A DNA stretch of 64,000 nucleotides from NCBI GenBank assembly GCA_964596675.1, contig CAZQUZ010000003.1, positions 30,198-94,197 of the forward strand, given 5' to 3'. The notes under the pieces were generated by a model, which searched no databases, had not been told where the DNA came from, and was given only the letters and a program-made list of their open reading frames with translations. The translations under genes were made by a program, and so were the position numbers. Below, one piece after another: positions 29,852-55,965 of the stretch. This DNA comes from an uncultured Candidatus Peribacteria bacterium. GTDB lineage: Bacteria; Patescibacteriota; Gracilibacteria; BD1-5; UBA2023. How positions within the stretch are numbered: the stretch's first letter is position 1; every line of letters starts with the position of its first letter.

Positions 29852-30631
29852 TTATCGTACTAAAAATGCTTGTTTTGTCTCCAAGAGATATAATTTTTCC
29901 CTATCCGTCATCTTGGGAATTTTTTTATTTGAGGCTATTTCTTTATTTCGATCTAAAAATATCTGAAAATCTCCAAGAGTATAGGATTGATTTTTATAAT
30001 CAGGGGTAAATCAATTCTCTCGCGTGAGGAACTCATGAACTTTTCATGGAAATCAGATTAATGGCTGATTTTGTATACTCTCTGGGGTATATACTGTTTT
30101 TTCTATTTTCTTATAGAGCAGATTATTTTTTTCATCGAGTGAAACTATAAACATCCCATCAGAATATGTTTTATCTGGATTTTCATGAAATCCATTCGAT
30201 ACAAGGAGTTCATGTGTTTTGTTCATAAATCCATTCGGCCTTACTTCCATATCCTCTGATAAAAATCATTTTCATATATCTTGTGATGGGGTAATATGTT
30301 TCGCATATTTCTCCATAAGAGTATCTATCTTCGCATCATCGAGTCGTATGATATCCCCCTCACGCACACTATGTACGGCTCTATACCCATATTTTTTGGT
30401 AGATATTCTATTTGGTGTGAGCGCATGCTCATCAGTACTAATCACTCGCGAAAGATCACGCAAGAGTTTACGGGTATTATTATCTAATTTTTCTTTTTTT
30501 AAATCTATACCCATAGCCACGGCAAGCTGCTGGGAGATACCATTTCCTCTTTCGATAGTGATACCCTTTTTTAAGGCCTCTGAGAGCTTATCGGATTGCT
30601 CTGATGTAAGGAGATTTTCTCGGGTTGACAT
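29852..30631 (-). CDS. hypothetical protein (259 aa), island gene 2
   Basis: Track ORFs 30272-30631 and 30053-30250 share a frame and join through TGA. TAA stop at 29852-29854. No motif recognised. Confidence 0.55.
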
Positions 30632-46754: not shown

Positions 46755-47447
46755 CTACCCATGGAGGAGAGCAAAACTCACTACTACCCCTGCTGTCTCG
46801 GTACGGAGAACTCTCTCACCAAAACGAGCAAATATAAAACCATTATCTTTCATTTTTTCACGCTCTTTCGGTGACCAACCACCCTCAGGCCCCACCCAGA
46901 GTGATATCGCTTCATTTTGGGGCATTTCCTGCATTTTTAGAGATATGCCTGTGGTATCGAGAGTGATATGACGCTCGTCAGACTGCGGTACGGGCATATT
47001 CCCGTCGAATACTATCTCTGGCATGATGAGTCCACCACACTGTTCGAGCGCTTCTCGTGCTATACTGATGAGTCGGGACTGTTTCGCATCGGAGATGACG
47101 AGCTTCTGTGAAAAGTCAGATCGGAAAAAGACGAATCTCTGTATCCCGACTTCGACTCCTTTCTGGAGGATATACTCGATTTTTTCGAGCTTATTCGGGA
47201 GCGCCTGATACAGGGTAATGGATTTCTTCGGCTCAGTCGCCGGAAACTGTCGTCCGATACCTCTCAGGGCGATGGATTTCTTCGTGATACTCTCGATGCT
47301 ATAGAGATACTCTGAACTATCCCCATCGAATAATACAATCTCATCTCATACCCCGACTCGCATGACACGAGTGAGCTGATGGACTATATCTGCATCCGTG
47401 AGGGTGAAGTCGATCGTCAGTGGTGATGTGATATAAAAACGCTGCAT
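46755..47447 (-). CDS. rsmE: 16S rRNA (uracil1498-N3)-methyltransferase
   Basis: 230 aa. It begins MQRFYI, has LYQALPNKLEKIEYILQKGVEVG, and ends with the C-terminal motif GPEGGWSPKE. Confidence 0.85.
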
Positions 47448-47448
47448 A

Positions 47449-47976
47449 TTATCTCTGGAGGAGGTGATAGATATCTCGTGGGAGGAGGAGTGTATCGAGG
47501 ACGATACGACCGGCGAGATAGATGAGAAAGAGTGATCCCTGAGCGACTCCGTAGGTGAATCCTGCCATATCTACGAATATATTATCTCCGAGCTTCTGGC
47601 GCTCGAAGTACTGTGTGAGTGGAGACTGAGCGAGAGGGATACCATCCATATCGATAACATACTCTGGCTCTGGATGTGGTTCTTCTGATTTTTTTTGCTC
47701 GCGATCGAGCATACCGATGACATCACTATAGCTCTCGATGGATATCTGCCCGGTGCTAAGAGCTTCTTTGATATCTGATTTTAGAGTGTTTAAGGACTGT
47801 CCCGTCTCGATACGACGACGCAGCTCGAAGATATCGAGCTTTTTCTTCGAGTAGAGTTTTTCTTTCGATTTTTCGAAATCTTCTTTTTTCTTCTCGATGA
47901 CGACAGTCTCAGACTCTTTCGATTCACGGATGCGTTTCCGAGCCTCATCATAGGCTCCTGGATTTTCTCATGGCAT
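47449..47976 (-). CDS. hypothetical protein (175 aa) with C-terminal hydrophobic helix
   Basis: Track ORF 47449-47712 is extended upstream in frame to ATG 47976. The N-terminal half is charged. Confidence 0.5.
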
Positions 47977-48073
47977 AGAGAAATTATAGAGAGATTTTTA
48001 CTTTTTTCAAACTTCAAAAGCCGATAAAAATCTCAAAAACAAGAATTTCGAGGATAACGAGGAAAAATCTTTT

Positions 48074-48103
48074 AAAAAAATATATCCCTAGATAGGGATT
48101 TTC
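48074..48103 (-). terminator. terminator after sufB
   Basis: Palindrome ATCCCTA-GA-TAGGGAT, with a U-run on the minus strand. Confidence 0.5.
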
Positions 48104-48183
48104 TCTCTTCTCTAGAATTCTTATTGAATTGAGAATTCTTTTATATTTTCACATAACAAAGAAAGTCGCAGTTTTTCAGATTT

Positions 48184-49599
48184 TTAAAGCCCCTCCATTT
48201 CCATACCGATGAGTATATTCATCTCTGCAGCATACTCGAGGGGGAGCTCTTTCATGAGTGGAGAGACGAATCCTCTGACGATAAGTGTCTTTGCCTCATC
48301 TTCTGGGATACCATGCGACTCCAGATAAAAGAGCACATCCTCATGAATCTTCCCGACACTCGCCTCATGCGCGACGAGCGCATCATCAGTCGCGACACGG
48401 ATATCCGGGATGGTATCTGAGCGAGAGATACTATCGAGGATGAGTCCATCACAGTCGATCTTCGCGACAGCACCGGTGGCAGATTTTTTGATATCGAGAA
48501 GTCCTCTATAAGTAGAGATACCTCAGGCTTTCGAGAGGCTCTTCGAGACGACTTCACTCGCGGTGTTTTTCCCGATATGGATGACTTTCGCACCGGTATC
48601 AGTATTTTGTCCTGCATTTGCGAATGCGATACCGAAATGGAGCGCTCTCGAATCATCTCACTTTAGAACTGAGCATGGATAGAGCATCGTGACTCATGAG
48701 CCGAGATTGCCACCGACCCATTCGATAGAGCCTCATGTCTCGACGATAGCTCGCTTGGTATTGAGATTATAGGTGTCGATAGACCAGTTTTCGACCGATG
48801 AATATCGCATCTTCGCATGAGCTCCGACATATATCTCCACACATCCTGCATGGAGGCTCGATGTCCCATACTTCGGTGCACTACAGCCCTCGATATAGTG
48901 AGCCTCGGCCTCATCCTCGATGATGATAAGTGTATGCTCGAACTGACCTCCTGCCTTTACATTCATACGGAAATATGCCTGCAGCGGGTCTGCTATCTTT
49001 ACTCAGCGTGGTATATAGAGAAATGTCCCACCACTCCAGACCGCACCGTGAAGTGCTGCGAACATATGATCTCACATCGGCACCGCTCGCATAAAGTGAC
49101 TTTTTACGAGAGCCTCATGGTCTCTGATAGCGACTGACATATCCTCGAAGATGACTCATTGCTCTTTGAGCTCTTCACGGAGATTATGATAGACGACTTC
49201 ACTGTCATACTGAGCTCAGACTCAGGCGAGCATAGCACGCTCTGCCTCTGGTATACCAAGTCGGTCGAAGGTATTTTTTATCGCTTCTGGGACATCATCC
49301 CATGACTTCGCATCACCTCATCCCTCTGCTTTCGCAAAATAGTATATACTTTCGAGGTCAAGTGCTTCGAGCGAAGGTCACCACGTCGGCTTCGAAAAAG
49401 TACGATATTTTTCGAGAGATTTCAGTCGATGTGTGAGCATCCACTCTGGTTCTTCATTCGATAGAGATATCTGGCGCACGACCGACTCATCGAGTCATGC
49501 CTTGGCCATCTGAGCATAGACGACACTATCACTCCCATCGAGTGTCTCGCGAGATATATCTCAGAAAGCATGGATGTCATCCTTATCCTGTGTAGTCAT
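48184..49599 (-). CDS. sufB: Fe-S cluster assembly protein SufB
   Basis: 471 aa with [11 protein letters not shown] and [20 protein letters not shown]. It has many in-frame TGA codons. Confidence 0.92.
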
Positions 49600-49632
49600 A
49601 ATTGAGAGTAGATTTTACAAGTCTCCATGTTT

Positions 49633-49998
49633 CTGTCATTCTGGGCTTGTCCCAGAATCTAGAAAAATAACATTTATAGTACTAATTCATCATATAAATC
49701 CTTCCAATCTGGGTTATTTTCTTCTATTGTATTGATTTTATATTCTCTTTTCCAGTTTTTAATTCTTTTTTCGGCACTTAATGCCTCATTTATATCTGAG
49801 AAGTTCTCATACCATACGAGCATTTTTACAGTATACTTCTTCGTAAATCCATCAACCAATCATTCTCTATGTTCATACATTCTACGCATTAGATTATTCG
49901 TAACTCAGACATAGAGAGTTCCATTTCTTTTTGATGCAAGTATGTAAACAGAATAGGTATTCATAGTGACTGGATTCTGGCATACGCCAGAATGACAG
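49633..49998 (-). mobile_element. GIY-YIG nuclease cassette bounded by hairpin-forming terminal inverted repeats
   Basis: Left end CTGTCATTCTGGGCTTGTCCCAGAATCTAG (49633-49662). Right end CTGGATTCTGGCATACGCCAGAATGACAG (49970-49998). The two are reverse complements of one another in their outer parts (CTGTCATTCTGG / CCAGAATGACAG), and each forms its own hairpin. The cassette sits in the sufC-sufB spacer. Confidence 0.5.
49674..49964 (-). CDS. GIY-YIG nuclease superfamily protein (UPF0213/COG2827-like, 96 aa)
   Basis: MNTYSVYILASKRNGTLYVGVTNNLMRRMYEHREG..., with two in-frame TGA codons. This is the track ORF 49674-49859 extended to ATG 49964. Confidence 0.85.
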
Positions 49999-50013
49999 AA
50001 AAAAATCCATATA

Positions 50014-50742
50014 CTAAAATCCATTTTGTCTGACGTCTTCTATCATCTCATGTCAGCCATGGCGATCTATTTGTCAAGACTTCATAATGATCACACTATC
50101 AACCTTTATGGAGTCGAGAAGATGAAAATTATGCGAAATAATAATGATTAACTTCGACATACTTCGCCACTTTTCGATGTGTCTGGCGAGCATCTCTATC
50201 GCACCGATATCGAGTCCTGCATCGATCTCATCGAGACATACGACGCTCGGATCGAGCAGTGCTATCTGGAGCATCTCGATGCGACGCTTCTCCCCTCCAG
50301 AAAATCCTACATACAGATCTCTATCGAGGAACTTCGCATCGATACCATATTCTGGGAGGAGCTTCTCCACCATACGGCGGAATACGAATGGTGTCGGCGG
50401 CTTCTCGGTCGGATGAGTGAGTATAAAATGATGGTTATAGATAGTGCGGAGATACTCTATGAGGCGTATCCCTGGTATCTCTGGTACACTCTGAAATGAG
50501 AGAAACATACCCTTTCTGGCTAGAGCATCTGGTGAGAGTCCAGTGAGAGACTCACCATCTAGGAGCATATCTCCAGTGAGCGTATATCTCGGATGATGAA
50601 AGAGCGCGAATGAGAGGGATGACTTCCCACTCCCATTCTCCCCGAGGAGTGCATAGGTCTGGCCTGGAGCGAATGTATAGGAGATATCATGGATAATCTC
50701 CTTTTCTCCTACCGTGACGGATATGTGGTCGAGTACTAACAT
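50014..50742 (-). CDS. sufC: Fe-S cluster assembly ATPase SufC
   Basis: 242 aa with Walker A GENGSGKSS, FSGGEKRR and LDEIDAGLD. The start is ATG 50742, which is internal to track ORF 50074-50922. It reads through TGA 50074-50076 to TAG at 50014-50016. Confidence 0.9.
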
Positions 50743-50792
50743 GCGCACATGATAAGGATAGGAAGCGGAAATGCAAAACTTTTTTACGCACC

Positions 50793-50817
50793 AAAAACCC
50801 CTCCAAAAAGGAGGGGT
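50793..50817 (-). terminator. terminator after the S-layer gene
   Basis: Stem CCCCTCC / GGAGGGG with loop AAAAA, and a U-run on the minus strand. Confidence 0.7.
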
Positions 50818-50857
50818 AAATGGGAATCTATCAGAAAGTAGTATCTCGTAAGAGAAA

Positions 50858-53755
50858 TTACTTAGTGAATGTTGCGCTAGCACCAACAGTACCAACGTAT
50901 GATTCAGTATCAGCAGCACCACCTACAGAGTAGTGAAGCTTCTTAAGAGCAACCTGAAGCTGTCCACCTGTAGGAAGGAGGTTAGCAGACTCGATGTATA
51001 CTTCGAATTCGACGTATCCACCGTTCTTATCAGCAGTCATATTAGTCGTAAGACCAGTGATAGCGATAGTCTTATCGAGACCAGCTACAGAGCCAGACGC
51101 AGTAGAGACACCTATACCACCGAATGTATTACTACTTCCGAGATTACGGAGGTATGCAGAAGCTGCATAAGTAGTATTACCAGGAAGAGCTGTCTTGAAG
51201 TCGAATGTAGCACCTGTAATAGTGATACCAGTGTTTGAGTCAGGGTTAGTGACACGAACCTTGAAGACATTCTCATTAACAGTAGTCACGAGAACTGTAG
51301 GAGCTACAGTACCAAGAATATAACTATTCGTAGTAGCAGAACCTGTAGGAGTGACAGCTGAAGAGTTTGAATCACGAACTACAGAGACTGCTGTATTTGG
51401 TATAGTACCAAGTGCAAGAGTGCGTCCGTAGTAAGTATCTATAGATGATACACCGAGGAGTACCTTATAGTTCTTAGTCACATCCTTAGCAATAGTATCA
51501 TTCATACTAGAGAATGTAATAGTGTTTCCAGAGATAGTGACGGTAGCAGAAACTTCGAGACCAGTAGCGACGTCTACGAGCTTAGCGCTAGAAGTAGAGT
51601 TTGCGATAGTCTGGATAGTAGCTACTGGAGCTCCTGAAAGAGTACCAGTAAGAGTAATAGCCTGTACGCGAGCCACCTCATTACGAGATGTGACAGCGAA
51701 GCGACCGATTTCTTGCTCAGCAGAAGAGTAGATACGAGTCGTAGACGGAGCTGCGACAGTAGCTGTCTTCACTTCTACCTCAGAAGTATTTACAGTAGTC
51801 TTATCACCTGTAAGGTTTGAACCAGCACCAAGACTAGAGATAGAGTTGTTGCTAGAATCACGTACCTCAGTAAGAGCTATAGTGAATTGGAATGCTGAAG
51901 GAGCAATAGCTGCATTATTCTTTGTAGAACCTTCGATAGTAAGGACTGCTGGGTTAGCAGCGTCTACTACGAATGATACTGTCTTCGCCTGAGCACCTAC
52001 GAGAGATGTAAGAGTAGCGATTTCAGAACCGTTAAGTTTTACAGTAAGCTGATCATTTACGAATGCTGTAATACCAGTACCAACAATGGCAGCTGGAGTA
52101 ATCGTAAGAGTACGTACAGACACAGGAGTAGATGAAGAGAGTTTACCAGCAAAAAGCTTAACATTGTTCTCACCTGGAGCGATAGTCACATTACCAGTAC
52201 TAGTCTTAGCAAATGTGAATTCTACAGAACCAAATGGAACTGTAATAGTAGAAGTACCGACAGATACCTGAGTAGAGTAACCAGTAGTTGTCTCTATAGC
52301 ATTGATATCAGTAGTAGCATCGATCTTGATACCCATACTTGAGCTATTCGCATCGATAAGGATATCAGCCTTAAGTTCATAAGTCTGAGTATTACCAGCA
52401 GCGAGTACATCAGAAAGACCAGTTACTGAGAGTTTCTCAGAAGTCAGAGTGACAGTACCGACAGCGACACCATTCTTATATACCTTAGCATTCTGGAGTC
52501 TCTTCGTGAAGTCAGTAGAACCGCTTCGTGTAAGAGTAAATCCAGTTACCTTAGTCTCACGTCCACCAGCAGATACATCGAGCTTACCAAAAAGCTGTTG
52601 AGTCTTACCAGCAGTCACAGTACCACCTGCAGTAGCGAGGCTCGCAGTAGTAGTAGCAGTAACGTAAGATGTAGTATTGAGAAGACCGAGAGTCACAGGA
52701 GAACCTGAAACAGTAGTATTACTAGCGTTTACAGAATCAAGAGTGAACTGGTGTTGGCTATTCTCAGCACCTGAAAGGTTTACGAGGATATCTACAGTCT
52801 GAGATGCACCAGCCTTGACGACGAGAGCAGGAGAGAAGTAGACAGTAGCCTTCTGAGAAGTAGAGTTGTAGTAGTCAGCAGTAGATGATACGACGACACC
52901 ATTCTGAGCGGCACGGATACCGTTAGAAGAAGTAATATCAGAAGCATTACCAAGACCAGAGCGAGAAACTACGAGAGACTGTACAGTCACATCAGTAGTA
53001 CCAGCAGTGAGCTTAACTGCACCAACCTTTACAGAAGACGCATTCTTAGGAACGTACTGTGCCATAGCCTGACCATCGAGAGCGACAGTAAGATTACCAG
53101 TGACAGTAGTAGTACCTGTAGAAGTAGTACCTGTAGAAGTAGGAGGAGTAGTAGGAGTAGTGTCTACATCGAGACCTGCACATACGACAGCAACCTTAAA
53201 TGCTTCACCACGAGATGATGATGCATTTGGGCGGAAGTATGAAGAGTCAGATACACATCCGATCTCATTAGCACGGTTAATGTATGATGCAAGATCACCA
53301 AGACCTGTAAGGTCCATGTAACCAGCGTCTACATCAGAACCAGTCTCACCGAGAGCACCGAGGATCATTTTGACCATCTCAGCACGAGTGATATTAGCAG
53401 TAGGACGGAAAGTAGCAGAAGCAGTAGAAACGACACCTGCATCAGCAAGAGCCTCTACGTATCCACAAAGATCTCCGAGACCAGCACCAACATCAGAGAA
53501 CACATCACCAGAACATGCCGTAGCCTCGATACCACCGAGGTTAGCGACTACCTTTGCGATTTCCGCGCGGGTAATATTGTTACCGAGACGGTATCCAGCT
53601 TCAGATGACTGAGCTGAGATAACGCTGTTATCAGCAAGTACTTCAGCGTAAGGAAGAAACTCAGAAGCAGCAGCCACAAGTGAAGCACTTGCAGAAACGG
53701 CTACGAGAGTAGCTACCCCAACAACAGAAGTAAGCTTCGTAAGGAAGTTACTCAT
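50858..53755 (-). CDS. S-layer / surface protein with N-terminal SLH domains (965 aa)
   Basis: Signal peptide MSNFLTKLTSVVGVATLVAVSASA. It has three SLH-like repeats (e.g. FSDVGAGLGDLCGYVEALADAGVV...ITRAEMVKMI), followed by a long Thr/Ser/Val/Ala-rich beta-type region. It contains no TGA. I prefer ATG 53755 to the track start at 53833. Confidence 0.8.
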   Translation of the reverse strand: MSNFLTKLTSVVGVATLVAVSASASLVAAASEFLPYAEVLADNSVISAQSSEAGYRLGNNITRAEIAKVVANLGGIEATACSGDVFSDVGAGLGDLCGYVEALADAGVVSTASATFRPTANITRAEMVKMILGALGETGSDVDAGYMDLTGLGDLASYINRANEIGCVSDSSYFRPNASSSRGEAFKVAVVCAGLDVDTTPTTPPTSTGTTSTGTTTVTGNLTVALDGQAMAQYVPKNASSVKVGAVKLTAGTTDVTVQSLVVSRSGLGNASDITSSNGIRAAQNGVVVSSTADYYNSTSQKATVYFSPALVVKAGASQTVDILVNLSGAENSQHQFTLDSVNASNTTVSGSPVTLGLLNTTSYVTATTTASLATAGGTVTAGKTQQLFGKLDVSAGGRETKVTGFTLTRSGSTDFTKRLQNAKVYKNGVAVGTVTLTSEKLSVTGLSDVLAAGNTQTYELKADILIDANSSSMGIKIDATTDINAIETTTGYSTQVSVGTSTITVPFGSVEFTFAKTSTGNVTIAPGENNVKLFAGKLSSSTPVSVRTLTITPAAIVGTGITAFVNDQLTVKLNGSEIATLTSLVGAQAKTVSFVVDAANPAVLTIEGSTKNNAAIAPSAFQFTIALTEVRDSSNNSISSLGAGSNLTGDKTTVNTSEVEVKTATVAAPSTTRIYSSAEQEIGRFAVTSRNEVARVQAITLTGTLSGAPVATIQTIANSTSSAKLVDVATGLEVSATVTISGNTITFSSMNDTIAKDVTKNYKVLLGVSSIDTYYGRTLALGTIPNTAVSVVRDSNSSAVTPTGSATTNSYILGTVAPTVLVTTVNENVFKVRVTNPDSNTGITITGATFDFKTALPGNTTYAASAYLRNLGSSNTFGGIGVSTASGSVAGLDKTIAITGLTTNMTADKNGGYVEFEVYIESANLLPTGGQLQVALKKLHYSVGGAADTESYVGTVGASATFTK

Positions 53756-53940
53756 AAATATATATGGGTAAAAGAATAAAAAATGCGGATATCTCCGCGG
53801 AGCGGGAACAGGATAATCATGGTCAGTGATCACCCGAGGGTGATAATTTCTGGTCAGGAAATTATCGCCTTTCTCCTTTTAACGGGAGAGAGGTTAAAGC
53901 TTTAACCTCAAGTTATTTGCATAACGAGAGGATTTGGTAT

Positions 53941-54013
53941 CCGTCATTCCTGCGAAGGCAGGAATCCAGGGTTTCTGGATTTTCTGGATTCTGGGATAAA
54001 CCCAGAATGACAG
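53941..54013. repeat. solo (cargo-less) pair of the GIY-YIG-cassette inverted repeats
   Basis: CCGTCATTCCTGCGAAGGCAGGAATCCAG (53941-53969) and CTGGATTCTGGGATAAACCCAGAATGACAG (53984-54013) are separated by only 14 nt. They have the same architecture as the ends at 49633 and 49998. Confidence 0.6.
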
Positions 54014-54450
54014 AAACGTAGCAACCAAATCCTCCCCTTATACAGTGATAGCCGAGGCGACCAAAGCAGGGAAAATGATGTTAAAGAACATCCACGAGAA
54101 CAGACAGTACTCGCAAAATACGCGCTCATAATATGAAAACAGGGGTATAAAGTCAAATCAAATGCTCTCTCTTCACATTATTTTCACCACCAAAAATCAT
54201 AGTACGATGAAGAAAAAAATATGCAAGTATTGTTTTTTCTCATCCAGAAAAGAAAAATACAGGAAAACCAGAAAATATATTTCATTTTCAAAAAAAAGCA
54301 CTACAATAGCTCTGTCATTCGGAAAAACATGTGAAACTAGTGTAAAAGCAAAGCGTAAAAGCCAACGAAAATCAAATATAACACCAAAAATACTTCCCAT
54401 CCAAGAGATACAAGCATCCGAATGATGTTTCTATCACTCATTCTTATTTT

Positions 54451-55965
54451 ATGTTTATCAATATTCTTCTCACTCTCATCGCTGGATGAGTTTTTGGTGG
54501 TGGTATCGTGTACCTGATGGCGGAGAAAAAAAATAAAGCCTCTGCCGGAGTCCTTATAAAAGAAGCTGAGGAAAAGGCAAAACACATCATCACTCGTGCT
54601 GAAGAAACTCGTGAGAATATTCGCCGCGAAGCTGAAGAGACAAAAAATGATATCAAAGAGCGTAAAGATCAACTCATTACATCAGAGGAGCGCCTCATCG
54701 AGAAAGAAAAACGCATCGATACGAAGTCTGAAGAAATCGACCAGAAAAAAGAAGATCTCGAAAATATCGAAAAAACTCTCGAGCAAAAACTCACTCAAGC
54801 AGATATGAAAGCTCGTGAACTCGAATGAAAGCTCGAAGCCATGGCGAAACTCTCTCAGGAAGAGGCAAAAGAGCAACTCATGAAGCTCACCGAAGAGCGC
54901 TATGAGAAAGACCTCGTGGGACTCCTCGAAAAAAAGAAAAAAGACCTCAAGTCTCGTGAAGCAGAAATCTCTAAAGAAATCCTCATAAAAAGCATACAGC
55001 AATATGCCTGAGAGGTGACTGGTGAGACGACACAGACACTCGTCACACTCGAAAGTGACGATATCAAATGAAAACTTATCGGAAAAGAGGGTCGAAATAT
55101 CATCGCATTCGAAAAGGCTACGGGGGTATCACTCATCATCGATGATGCTCCGGATACCGTATTTCTCTCGAGCTTCGATCTCTTTCGACGATATATCGCG
55201 AAAAAATCTCTCGAAGACCTCATCGAAGATAAGCGTATCCAGCCAGCTCGTATCGAGGAAATCGTTGAGAAAAATCAGCAAGAAGCGGACAAACTCATCA
55301 CCGACCTCGGTCGTAAAACCGTAGAAGAAATGGGTATCATCGGTATCCCAGATGAGATACTCCCACTCATCGGAAAGTTCCGATTCCGTACGAGCTACGG
55401 ACAAAATATCCTCATGCACTCGAAAGAAGTCGCCTATATCGCTGAGGCTATCGCGAAGCTCATCGGTGCAGATCCGGTCCTCGCCCTGAAGTGAGGGCTT
55501 CTCCATGACCTCGGAAAGGCTATGGACCATGATATCGAAGGGACACACCCTGAGATCGGTGGACGTATCGCCCGAAAGTACGGTCTCGATGAAAAAATCG
55601 TGAATATCATCGAATGACACCATGATGATGTCCCGATGATATGCCTCGAGACGAAGATCGTACAGATAGCTGATGCGATATCTGCAGTCCGTCCAGGGGC
55701 TCGCCGCATGAATGTAGAGGACTACATAAAGCGTATCCAAGAAATGGAAAACATCGCTATGGGGTTTTCTGGTGTGAGTAAAGCATATGCTCTGTCGGCT
55801 GGACGAGAGATACGAGTATTCGTCGATGCAGATAATGTAAACGATCTCAGTGCGGGTAAAATGGCACAAGAAATAGCTGCCCAGATAGAAGCAAACTGTA
55901 ATTATCCTGGTGAAATAAAAGTCATCGTCTTCCGTGAAAAACGTATCGTCGAATATGCAAAATAA
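54451..55965 (+). CDS. rny: ribonuclease Y
   Basis: 504 aa. It has an N-terminal TM helix, a Lys/Glu coiled coil, a KH domain ([11 protein letters not shown]), and an HD domain ([13 protein letters not shown]). Confidence 0.9.

Follow-up and report, generated by a model that had tools for sequence, protein, structure and literature searches.

An Ssn-like GIY-YIG nuclease gene between inverted hairpins in the sufC-sufB spacer of a recoded Peribacteria genome, with comparative evidence for insertion of the unit as a block

The locus and its host genome

The sufC-sufB spacer of an uncultured Candidatus Peribacteria bacterium, which lies within the window analysed here (64,000 nt; positions 30,198 to 94,197 of contig CAZQUZ010000003.1, assembly GCA_964596675.1), contains a gene for a small GIY-YIG nuclease enclosed by two hairpins in inverted orientation. 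We identify this insert, with a probability of roughly 0.8, as a cassette of the Ssn type, i.e. a GIY-YIG gene with an inverted pair of SRM/NTS hairpins, inserted between two genes of the suf operon. SsnA of Neisseria meningitidis is a 94-aa single-domain GIY-YIG protein (CDD cd10448), which binds the repeat NTS (CGTCATTCCCGCGMAVGCGGGAATCYRG) solely in single-stranded DNA (ssDNA), with cleavage a few nt upstream of it, while the SRM motif is found near 71% of ssn homolog genes, and on both sides in 42% (Chenal 2025, PMC11893778). SsnA does not cleave the reverse strand, double-stranded DNA (dsDNA) or RNA, does not bind RNA, and loses its activity when the stem sequence is altered (PMC11893778). 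Hairpins of this kind are also members of the CGTC-tagged REP family, which includes dRS3/NTS of Neisseria and RPE-4/RPE-6 of Rickettsia and is characterized by 8-9-bp stems starting A-T, loops of 4-5 nt and a tag that is often TGTC; these repeats (families CGTC-1 to -4) occur mostly as opposite-orientation dimers, often heterodimers (Di Nocera 2013, PMC3733652). They were said to lack a dedicated transposase, and no associated enzyme gene was found (PMC3733652).

The genome under study (G000; the other G-numbers denote genomes of relatives and L-numbers the loci examined) is a 96%-complete assembly of 1.16 Mb in 56 contigs, with 42% GC. TGA is a sense codon in this genome: translation table 11 fragments the region into short open reading frames (ORFs), whereas table 25 restores full-length genes, and the host is a code-25 (Gracilibacteria/SR1-type) genome. 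The features of the locus, in window coordinates, are as follows.

50014..50772, minus strand: sufC, ABC ATPase of the SUF system (Pfam ABC_tran, E=1.9e-16)
49630..50001, no strand assigned: whole cassette, bounded by a perfect 15-nt terminal inverted repeat (49630-49644 / 49987-50001)
49970..49998, minus strand: upstream hairpin, sense strand CTGTCATTCTGGCGTATGCCAGAATCCAG, an NTS/SRM-type CGTC(TGTC)-tagged REP in forward orientation
49674..49964, minus strand: ssn-like gene for a 96-aa single-domain GIY-YIG nuclease (Pfam PF01541, E=3.9e-17)
49633..49662, plus strand: downstream hairpin, plus strand CTGTCATTCTGGGCTTGTCCCAGAATCTAG, in forward orientation on the strand opposite the gene
48184..49599, minus strand: sufB, SUFBD core, 471 aa (Pfam SUFBD_core, E=2e-74)

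Read along the minus strand, the order is sufC, 15 nt, hairpin, 5 nt, the 96-aa ORF, 11 nt, hairpin, 33 nt and sufB. The sufC stop codon (TAG) occupies 50014-50016, and the C-terminus is intact in a junction alignment with congeners; sufB starts with ATG at 49597-49599 and has 13 in-frame TGA codons under table 25. The hairpin-to-hairpin unit measures ~366 bp and the cassette has ~30% GC, compared with ~47-50% in the flanks. In plus-strand letters the two hairpins read CTGTCATTCTGGGCTTGTCCCAGAATC(TAG) at 49633-49662 and (CTG)GATTCTGGCATACGCCAGAATGACAG at 49970-49998. The upstream one has a perfect 8-bp stem (49974-49981/49986-49993) with a 4-nt loop and ends 5 nt ahead of the ATG, and the downstream one, CTAGATTCTGGGACAAGCCCAGAATGACAG on the sense strand of the gene (49662-49633), has a perfect 8-bp stem (49638-49645/49651-49658) with a 5-nt loop and lies 11 nt from the end of the ORF. 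Folded as ssDNA, the upstream and downstream hairpins reach -9.2 and -8.6 kcal/mol, with z-scores of -5.7 and -4.7, respectively, and none of 200 shuffled sequences was as stable. Both share the NTS flanks GTCATTC...GAATC-YRG exactly; only the stem interior differs (TCTGGC and TCTGGG in the two cassette hairpins).

An earlier note, made from the letters of the window, had already placed a 96-aa GIY-YIG ORF between sufC and sufB and described inverted flanking repeats that each fold as a hairpin, and both statements were borne out, by the Pfam matches of all three genes and by the 8-bp stems and the 15-nt terminal repeat. Its gaps of 16 nt and 34 nt to the neighbouring genes locate the cassette correctly in the spacer, but are each 1 nt too large (15 and 33).

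The nuclease and its family

The PF01541 match covers residues 4-76, and Pfam revealed no other domain in the 96-aa protein. This length depends on TGA as a sense codon, as table 11 leaves an ORF of 61 aa. The in-frame TGA codons are at 49905-49907 and 49860-49862, and in an alignment of 17 sequences the former corresponds to the invariant Gly of the YxG motif and the latter to a position occupied mostly by Gly, which supports both the reading of TGA as Gly and the view that the gene is intact in G000. Residues Y7, Y18, G20, R27, H32, E65 and N84 are invariant in this alignment; Y7, Y18 and E65 match the catalytic Y6, Y17 and E64 of SsnA with an offset of one residue, the equivalence being one of position only.

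GIY-YIG matches among 40 relatives split into two groups by E-value. Those with E<=1e-20 (41-77% identity; 14 homologs, L013-L026) all have GTCAT.../...ATGAC hairpins on both sides, and one of them, the 50% identical homolog at L015 (E = 1e-29), has the literal NTS consensus on both sides. The others (E ~1e-5 to 1e-8, 30-38% identity) exhibit the GxGAKYT motif of YhbQ/UPF0213 and have no hairpins. The size of the protein, its domain, its catalytic residues, the flanking motif and the linkage provided by L015 together suggest that it belongs to Ssn, an assignment made through these features and not through a direct E-value. The family is very large: at E<=1e-10, at least 7,893 homologs with a length of ~95 aa were counted. 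Proteins of Alphaproteobacteria, Polynucleobacter, Parcubacteria and Elusimicrobia among them are 60-72% identical to the G000 protein, i.e. as close as the copy of the congener, a pattern that fits horizontal spread.

The earlier note had labelled the ORF as UPF0213-like, and this label has to be given up. In a sequence search against solved structures only weak matches to UPF0213, Slx1 and UvrC were obtained, with no Ssn structure among them; the best were the UPF0213 proteins EF2693 (PDB 1ywl) and BH0048 (1zg2), at E = 0.006-0.02, and the relatives that are of YhbQ type belong to the hairpin-less group described above. In G000 itself no paralog of the ssn-like gene was found, the only other GIY-YIG domain being the N-terminus of UvrC (C1:162355-162582), and no YhbQ/UPF0213-type GIY-YIG gene was detected in the 96%-complete assembly, though most relatives carry one. 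Two other identities were considered and rejected: a GIY-YIG homing endonuclease, as there is no C-terminal DNA-binding domain and the match to the group I intron endonuclease model TIGR01453, at 20.6 bits, stays far below its cut-off of 56, and an HUH tyrosine transposase of the REP/RAYT or IS200/IS605 kind, as the sole domain is GIY-YIG.

The hairpin family

The terminal 12-mer CTGTCATTCTGG, further copies of which the earlier note had proposed to look for, occurs in five exact copies in the 1.16-Mb genome, compared with one for a reversed control. In all, the genome has ~16 hairpins that can be written as (C/T)GTCAT-stem-loop-stem-ATC(C/T)AG. Their stems comprise 8 bp and begin with AT, their loops measure 4-5 nt and their tag is (C/T)GTC, in agreement with the description of the CGTC-tagged REPs. 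The downstream hairpin of the cassette recurs identically at G000:C7:27630-27654. The hairpins outside the cassette are arranged as seven gene-less dimers with outward-pointing tags, as at the cassette ends, and with spacers of 8-33 nt apart from one longer, degenerate copy. The two partners of a dimer usually have unlike stems (TCCTGC, TCCGTG, TCTGGG, TCTGGA), and cassettes of the TCCTGC type were found in G005, G031 and G040.

We aligned 20 distinct hairpins from G000 and its relatives for a covariation analysis. The 8-bp stem is paired in 20 of the 20; five of its positions vary on both sides, no cell is unpaired, and GTCAT and ATC are invariant throughout. Pairing amounts to 92% of cells as opposed to 13-48% in slid controls, and the covariation score was reached by none of 500 shuffles. 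The covariation and the full pairing indicate that the hairpin structure is under selection.

A scan of the genome collection with the NTS consensus revealed the motif in many phyla, also as gene-less dimers with outward tags. Literal NTS dimers with outward tags, 16-84 nt apart, were encountered in Gamma-, Beta- and Alphaproteobacteria (among L074, L080, L091, L111, L124 and L139), and single literal copies in Planctomycetes, Dehalococcoidia, Verrucomicrobia, Nitrospirae and Peribacteria; at L081 two NTS copies are 416 nt apart, the size of a cassette.

According to the earlier note, its proposal would fail if the repeats turned out to be ordinary terminators. This is ruled out by the terminator scan, which found 0 terminator-like sites, and no T-run follows either hairpin. 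A search of Rfam returned nothing relevant in 48,000-55,000 at E up to 10.

Occupied and empty sites in relatives

The junctions were compared with the same-genus genomes G001-G009, in which the sufC orthologs are 71-79% identical to that of G000. The sufC-sufB spacer is 6-18 nt long in six of these genomes (G001, G002, G003, G004, G008 and G009) and 36 nt in G005, compared with 414 nt in G000; in G013 and G023, from two further genera of the family, it measures 7-12 nt. In G006 (L047) and G007 (L057) spacers of 136-145 nt contain gene-less remnants with a different type of hairpin (ATTGC...GCAAT), CTGGATTGC…GCAATGACAG, also given as CTGGATTGC...CTCGCAATGAC, which points either to repeated insertion into the spacer or to the decay of an older cassette at this junction. 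As the junction is empty in most congeners, the suggestion of the earlier note that a small mobile or selfish cassette sits here between co-transcribed genes is supported.

The closest comparison is provided by G001, in which a cassette with 75% DNA identity over 373 nt, 77% protein identity and the same two hairpins, the downstream one being identical, is found ~2.5 kb from sufC-sufB in the same syntenic block, between a 175-aa ORF and the RNA methyltransferase gene rsmE (Pfam Methyltrans_RNA, E=2.1e-34). The site occupied in G001 corresponds in the window to the following feature.

47447..47449, minus strand: orf175-rsmE junction with a 1-nt spacer, the empty counterpart in G000 of the G001 cassette site

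The sites are thus reciprocally empty, with a 1-nt orf175-rsmE spacer in G000 and a 9-nt sufC-sufB spacer in G001. Only the stretch from CTGTCATTC through GAATGAC(A/G)G is homologous in the two cassettes, and the flanks are unrelated; in both genomes the cassette is co-oriented with the host operon. Two further sets of copies exhibit the same behaviour. G012 has two copies that are 93.6% identical over 419 nt, mostly one 10-nt indel apart, bounded by CTGTCATTTCG…CGAAATGACAG and with unrelated flanks, and in another genus one cassette lineage (80-86% identical) occupies three contexts, in G032, G038 and G028, again within GTCAT…ATGAC bounds. Homology between copies always ends within 0-2 nt of GTCAT…ATGAC. 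The hairpin-gene-hairpin unit inserts as a block, with borders 0-2 nt outside the tags, at different sites in relatives. The number of Ssn-type copies among close relatives ranges from 0 to 7, with the highest numbers (six or seven) in G001 and G012, and eight of 41 relatives have no GIY-YIG match at all at E<=0.001.

Two observations concern the immediate surroundings of the G000 cassette. A 9-nt direct repeat, ATGGATTTT, duplicates the last codons of sufC beside the cassette (50002-50024), and ATGGA recurs on its other side, at ~49619-49623; these repeats could be an insertion footprint or could have arisen by chance. In comparison with G005, the spacer of G000 has a further 15 nt and 8 nt adjoining the cassette.

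Gene-less dimers inside genes

In-frame insertions of REP and RPE sequences are known. In-frame intragenic dimers of CGTC REPs encode 20-30 residues (PMC3733652). Three of the gene-less dimers of G000 are located inside real genes, for CysRS, a MutY-like glycosylase and a flavoprotein, all in frame and all outside the window.

G000:C1:30384-30452: 69-nt dimer in the CysRS gene (ORF C1:29697-31334)
G000:C1:174742-174823: dimer in the MutY-like glycosylase gene
G000:C7:62743-62808: dimer in the flavoprotein gene

The CysRS insert (VIPAHAGIQRIGNMDPETSSGGQ) adds 23 residues just ahead of the GRPGWHIECSA motif and is absent from seven congeners, while G001, G013 and G014 carry other inserts in the same loop. 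The MutY-like and flavoprotein inserts are each absent from four congeners, and the latter is shared with G007. The gene-less dimers with cassette-like ends are therefore also insertions, some of them in frame inside genes. All three intragenic dimers are read GTC ATT CC…, translated as VIP…, and end with GGA/GAA TGA CAG, so that the TGA of the conserved terminus GAATGAC is in frame in three of three; it can be read there because TGA encodes Gly in this host. As evidence for a preferred frame, three cases amount to an anecdote, with a chance expectation of about 1 in 9 given the first frame.

Interpretation and alternatives

As outlined above, the identification of the locus as an Ssn-type cassette is based on the nuclease, on the inverted hairpins and on the comparison of occupied and empty sites. 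Several results weigh against it, or against the mobility of the unit. In the two Neisseria assemblies covered, of N. lactamica and N. mucosa, the GIY-YIG proteins are of YhbQ type or UvrC, and no Ssn-like gene was found. The published SRM search pattern fits the upstream hairpin alone and not the downstream one; genome-wide it gives 11 matches against 3.8 +/- 2.0 in shuffles and catches one of the ~16 hairpins, and is thus no use as a census tool. A single ssn gene and ~16 hairpins in G000 are no burst of copies, and no transposition intermediate was seen in the genomes compared. Target-site duplications, which the earlier note had recommended to look for at the junctions, are not consistent: ATGGA flanks the G000 cassette, and nothing comparable is present at five other junction pairs. 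The gaps of 15 nt and 33 nt on the outer sides of the hairpins are absent from the empty sites and are partly explained at best. Finally, most gene-less dimers have TCCTGC and TCCGTG stems, unlike those of the resident cassette, and because a changed stem abolishes the activity of SsnA, the resident enzyme may not act on most of them; the mismatched dimers may be relics of other Ssn lineages.

Because the cassette is co-oriented with the operon and followed by no terminator, it would probably be expressed by read-through, without disruption of sufB. By analogy with SsnA, the protein would bind each hairpin in ssDNA only and cut a few nt 5' of the GTCAT tag. Since both tags point outward, cleavage would be expected at either outer border of the cassette, with one cut per strand, which is where independent copies cease to be homologous. 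GIY-YIG enzymes are hydrolytic and unable to rejoin DNA, so any move would need host replication or repair. It is conceivable, though we consider it doubtful, that the whole is an autonomous transposable element of ~360 bp, which nicks both of its borders, depends on the host for the move itself and mobilises gene-less dimers in trans. If this were true, few of the self-contained mobile elements known would be smaller, and the unit would provide the 'missing transposase' of the CGTC REPs, RPE-4/6 and dRS3, and the recoding of TGA, by making the terminus readable, would widen the range of coding sites open to dimers. The NTS-ssnA-NTS arrangement was likened to an insertion sequence and to REP/RAYT, with domestication offered as a hypothesis and mobility undemonstrated (PMC11893778); the statement of the earlier note that mobility of this subfamily had not been demonstrated still holds in the literature searched.

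A domesticated host function would leave the Ssn assignment untouched; only the reason for which the cassette is retained would be another. The nuclease would act on the dispersed hairpins to modulate uptake or recombination of ssDNA, a role put forward for SsnA/NTS in the transformation of Neisseria, and the polymorphisms would represent old history. SsnA lowers the integration of NTS-flanked transforming DNA, and domestication was proposed for it (PMC11893778). The single-copy state of the gene in G000, its intactness, the invariance of its catalytic residues and its two TGA-Gly codons, which mark it as adapted to the host code, agree with such a role. However, a copy number of 0 to 7 among close relatives, at unconserved positions, and the eight relatives of 41 without a GIY-YIG match are unlike a fixed host gene, and ~16 hairpins compare with hundreds where a genome-wide role was proposed. 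On balance we regard domestication as unlikely.

It could also be envisaged that the unit originated in two steps, with the dimers spreading by other means and the GIY-YIG gene entering an existing dimer as a homing-type passenger, for which the dimer served as the target. Gene-less dimers do outnumber gene-bearing ones, seven to one in G000 and likewise in other phyla, and G006 and G007 have gene-less remnants at the very sufC-sufB spacer. These remnants, however, are of the different, ATTGC...GCAAT type, and the protein lacks the DNA-binding domain of the known GIY-YIG homing enzymes. Besides, G000 and G001 share the gene together with both hairpins, while each site is hairpin-free in the other genome, and the same sharing of hairpins and gene, with sharp outer borders, is exhibited by the G012 duplicate and by the G032, G038 and G028 set, all of which makes a two-step origin improbable. 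That the hairpins are ordinary regulatory RNA of the suf operon (terminators, attenuators or mRNA stabilisers) and only incidentally linked to the nuclease has been largely refuted and deserves very little credence: REP hairpins can stabilise or process mRNA and many were argued to act as RNA elements (PMC3733652), and both hairpins would be co-transcribed with the operon, but besides the missing T-runs, terminator-like sites and Rfam matches, the same hairpins are found within ORFs and in either orientation, most congeners lack them between sufC and sufB, their non-palindromic tags are conserved from phylum to phylum and go together with the nuclease gene, and SsnA binds no RNA (PMC11893778).

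Comparison with known systems

The identification as an Ssn-type cassette brings the locus closest to the Ssn/NTS system, with which it shares a single-domain GIY-YIG protein of ~95 aa with Tyr, Tyr and Glu at equivalent positions, inverted hairpins 5' and 3' of the gene with common GTCATTC...GAATC-YRG flanks, and further hairpin copies dispersed in the genome. It differs in that the G000 gene uses TGA for the invariant Gly of the motif, in that its stems are TCTGGC and TCTGGG instead of the TCCCGCG of Neisseria, with one hairpin escaping the SRM pattern, and in the number of hairpins, ~16 as opposed to hundreds. The G000 cassette is known from sequence alone; on the other hand, insertion polymorphism is documented around it, whereas mobility was undemonstrated in PMC11893778. 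With the CGTC REPs it has in common the 8-bp stems starting A-T, the unpaired CGTC/TGTC tag, the opposite-orientation dimers and the in-frame intragenic copies. In contrast to PMC3733652, where no such case was described, one of the dimers contains a GIY-YIG gene, as in PMC11893778, and the intragenic copies of G000 are read in the TGA-containing frame, which is closed in standard-code hosts.

REP/REPIN-RAYT systems (REPtrons) and IS200/IS605 elements are similar in having a small nuclease gene between inverted hairpins and many gene-less doublets, in the recognition of ssDNA hairpins by the enzyme and in the lack of target-site duplication. Their enzymes, however, are HUH tyrosine transposases and not hydrolytic GIY-YIG nucleases, for which there is neither a covalent intermediate nor rejoining, and hairpins of the Ssn type are cleavable on opposite strands, while those of IS200/IS605 are on one strand. 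UPF0213/YhbQ proteins resemble the nuclease as single-domain GIY-YIG proteins of ~90-100 aa, but at 30-38% identity, with their own GxGAKYT motif, and none of those in the relatives examined has flanking hairpins. Homing endonucleases of the T4 Seg and I-TevI kind also combine a GIY-YIG domain with the lifestyle of a small selfish gene between host genes, but have a C-terminal DNA-binding domain, cut dsDNA and lack flanking hairpins.

The hairpins, the dimers, the intragenic copies and the layout of gene and hairpins are all already in print, and what is added here is the comparative evidence of mobility. The identification accounts for an odd insert in an essential Fe-S cluster operon and corrects its family label. 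The comparative data bear on the question of mobility left by PMC11893778 and PMC3733652, and the presence of a natural donor and of empty sites within one genus makes this question testable. The in-frame dimers extend the phenomenon known from Rickettsia to a recoded lineage, and they illustrate that a frame across a selfish repeat can become readable once a codon has been reassigned.

Additional observations in the window

At both outward-facing ends of the cassette a promoter-like match is formed by ATGACA, provided by the hairpin terminus, and TAAAAT, provided by the flank, with 16-17 nt between them; one (49612-49639, minus strand) points toward sufB and the other (49992-50020, plus strand) is antisense into sufC. 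An outward promoter was rejected, as these are consensus matches alone and are unconserved at the G001 copy. One of the seven gene-less dimers is located inside the window.

53941..54013 (G000:C3:84140-84208), no strand assigned: gene-less dimer, CCGTCATTCCTGCGAAGGCAGGAATCCAG ...14 nt... CTGGATTCTGGGATAAACCCAGAATGACAG

It is a heterodimer of a TCCTGC and a TCTGGG stem, with outward tags as in the cassette, and lies in an intergenic region upstream of a large gene for a 991-aa surface protein. This dimer sits within a larger imperfect inverted repeat, GAGGATTTGGT ... ACCAAATCCTC.

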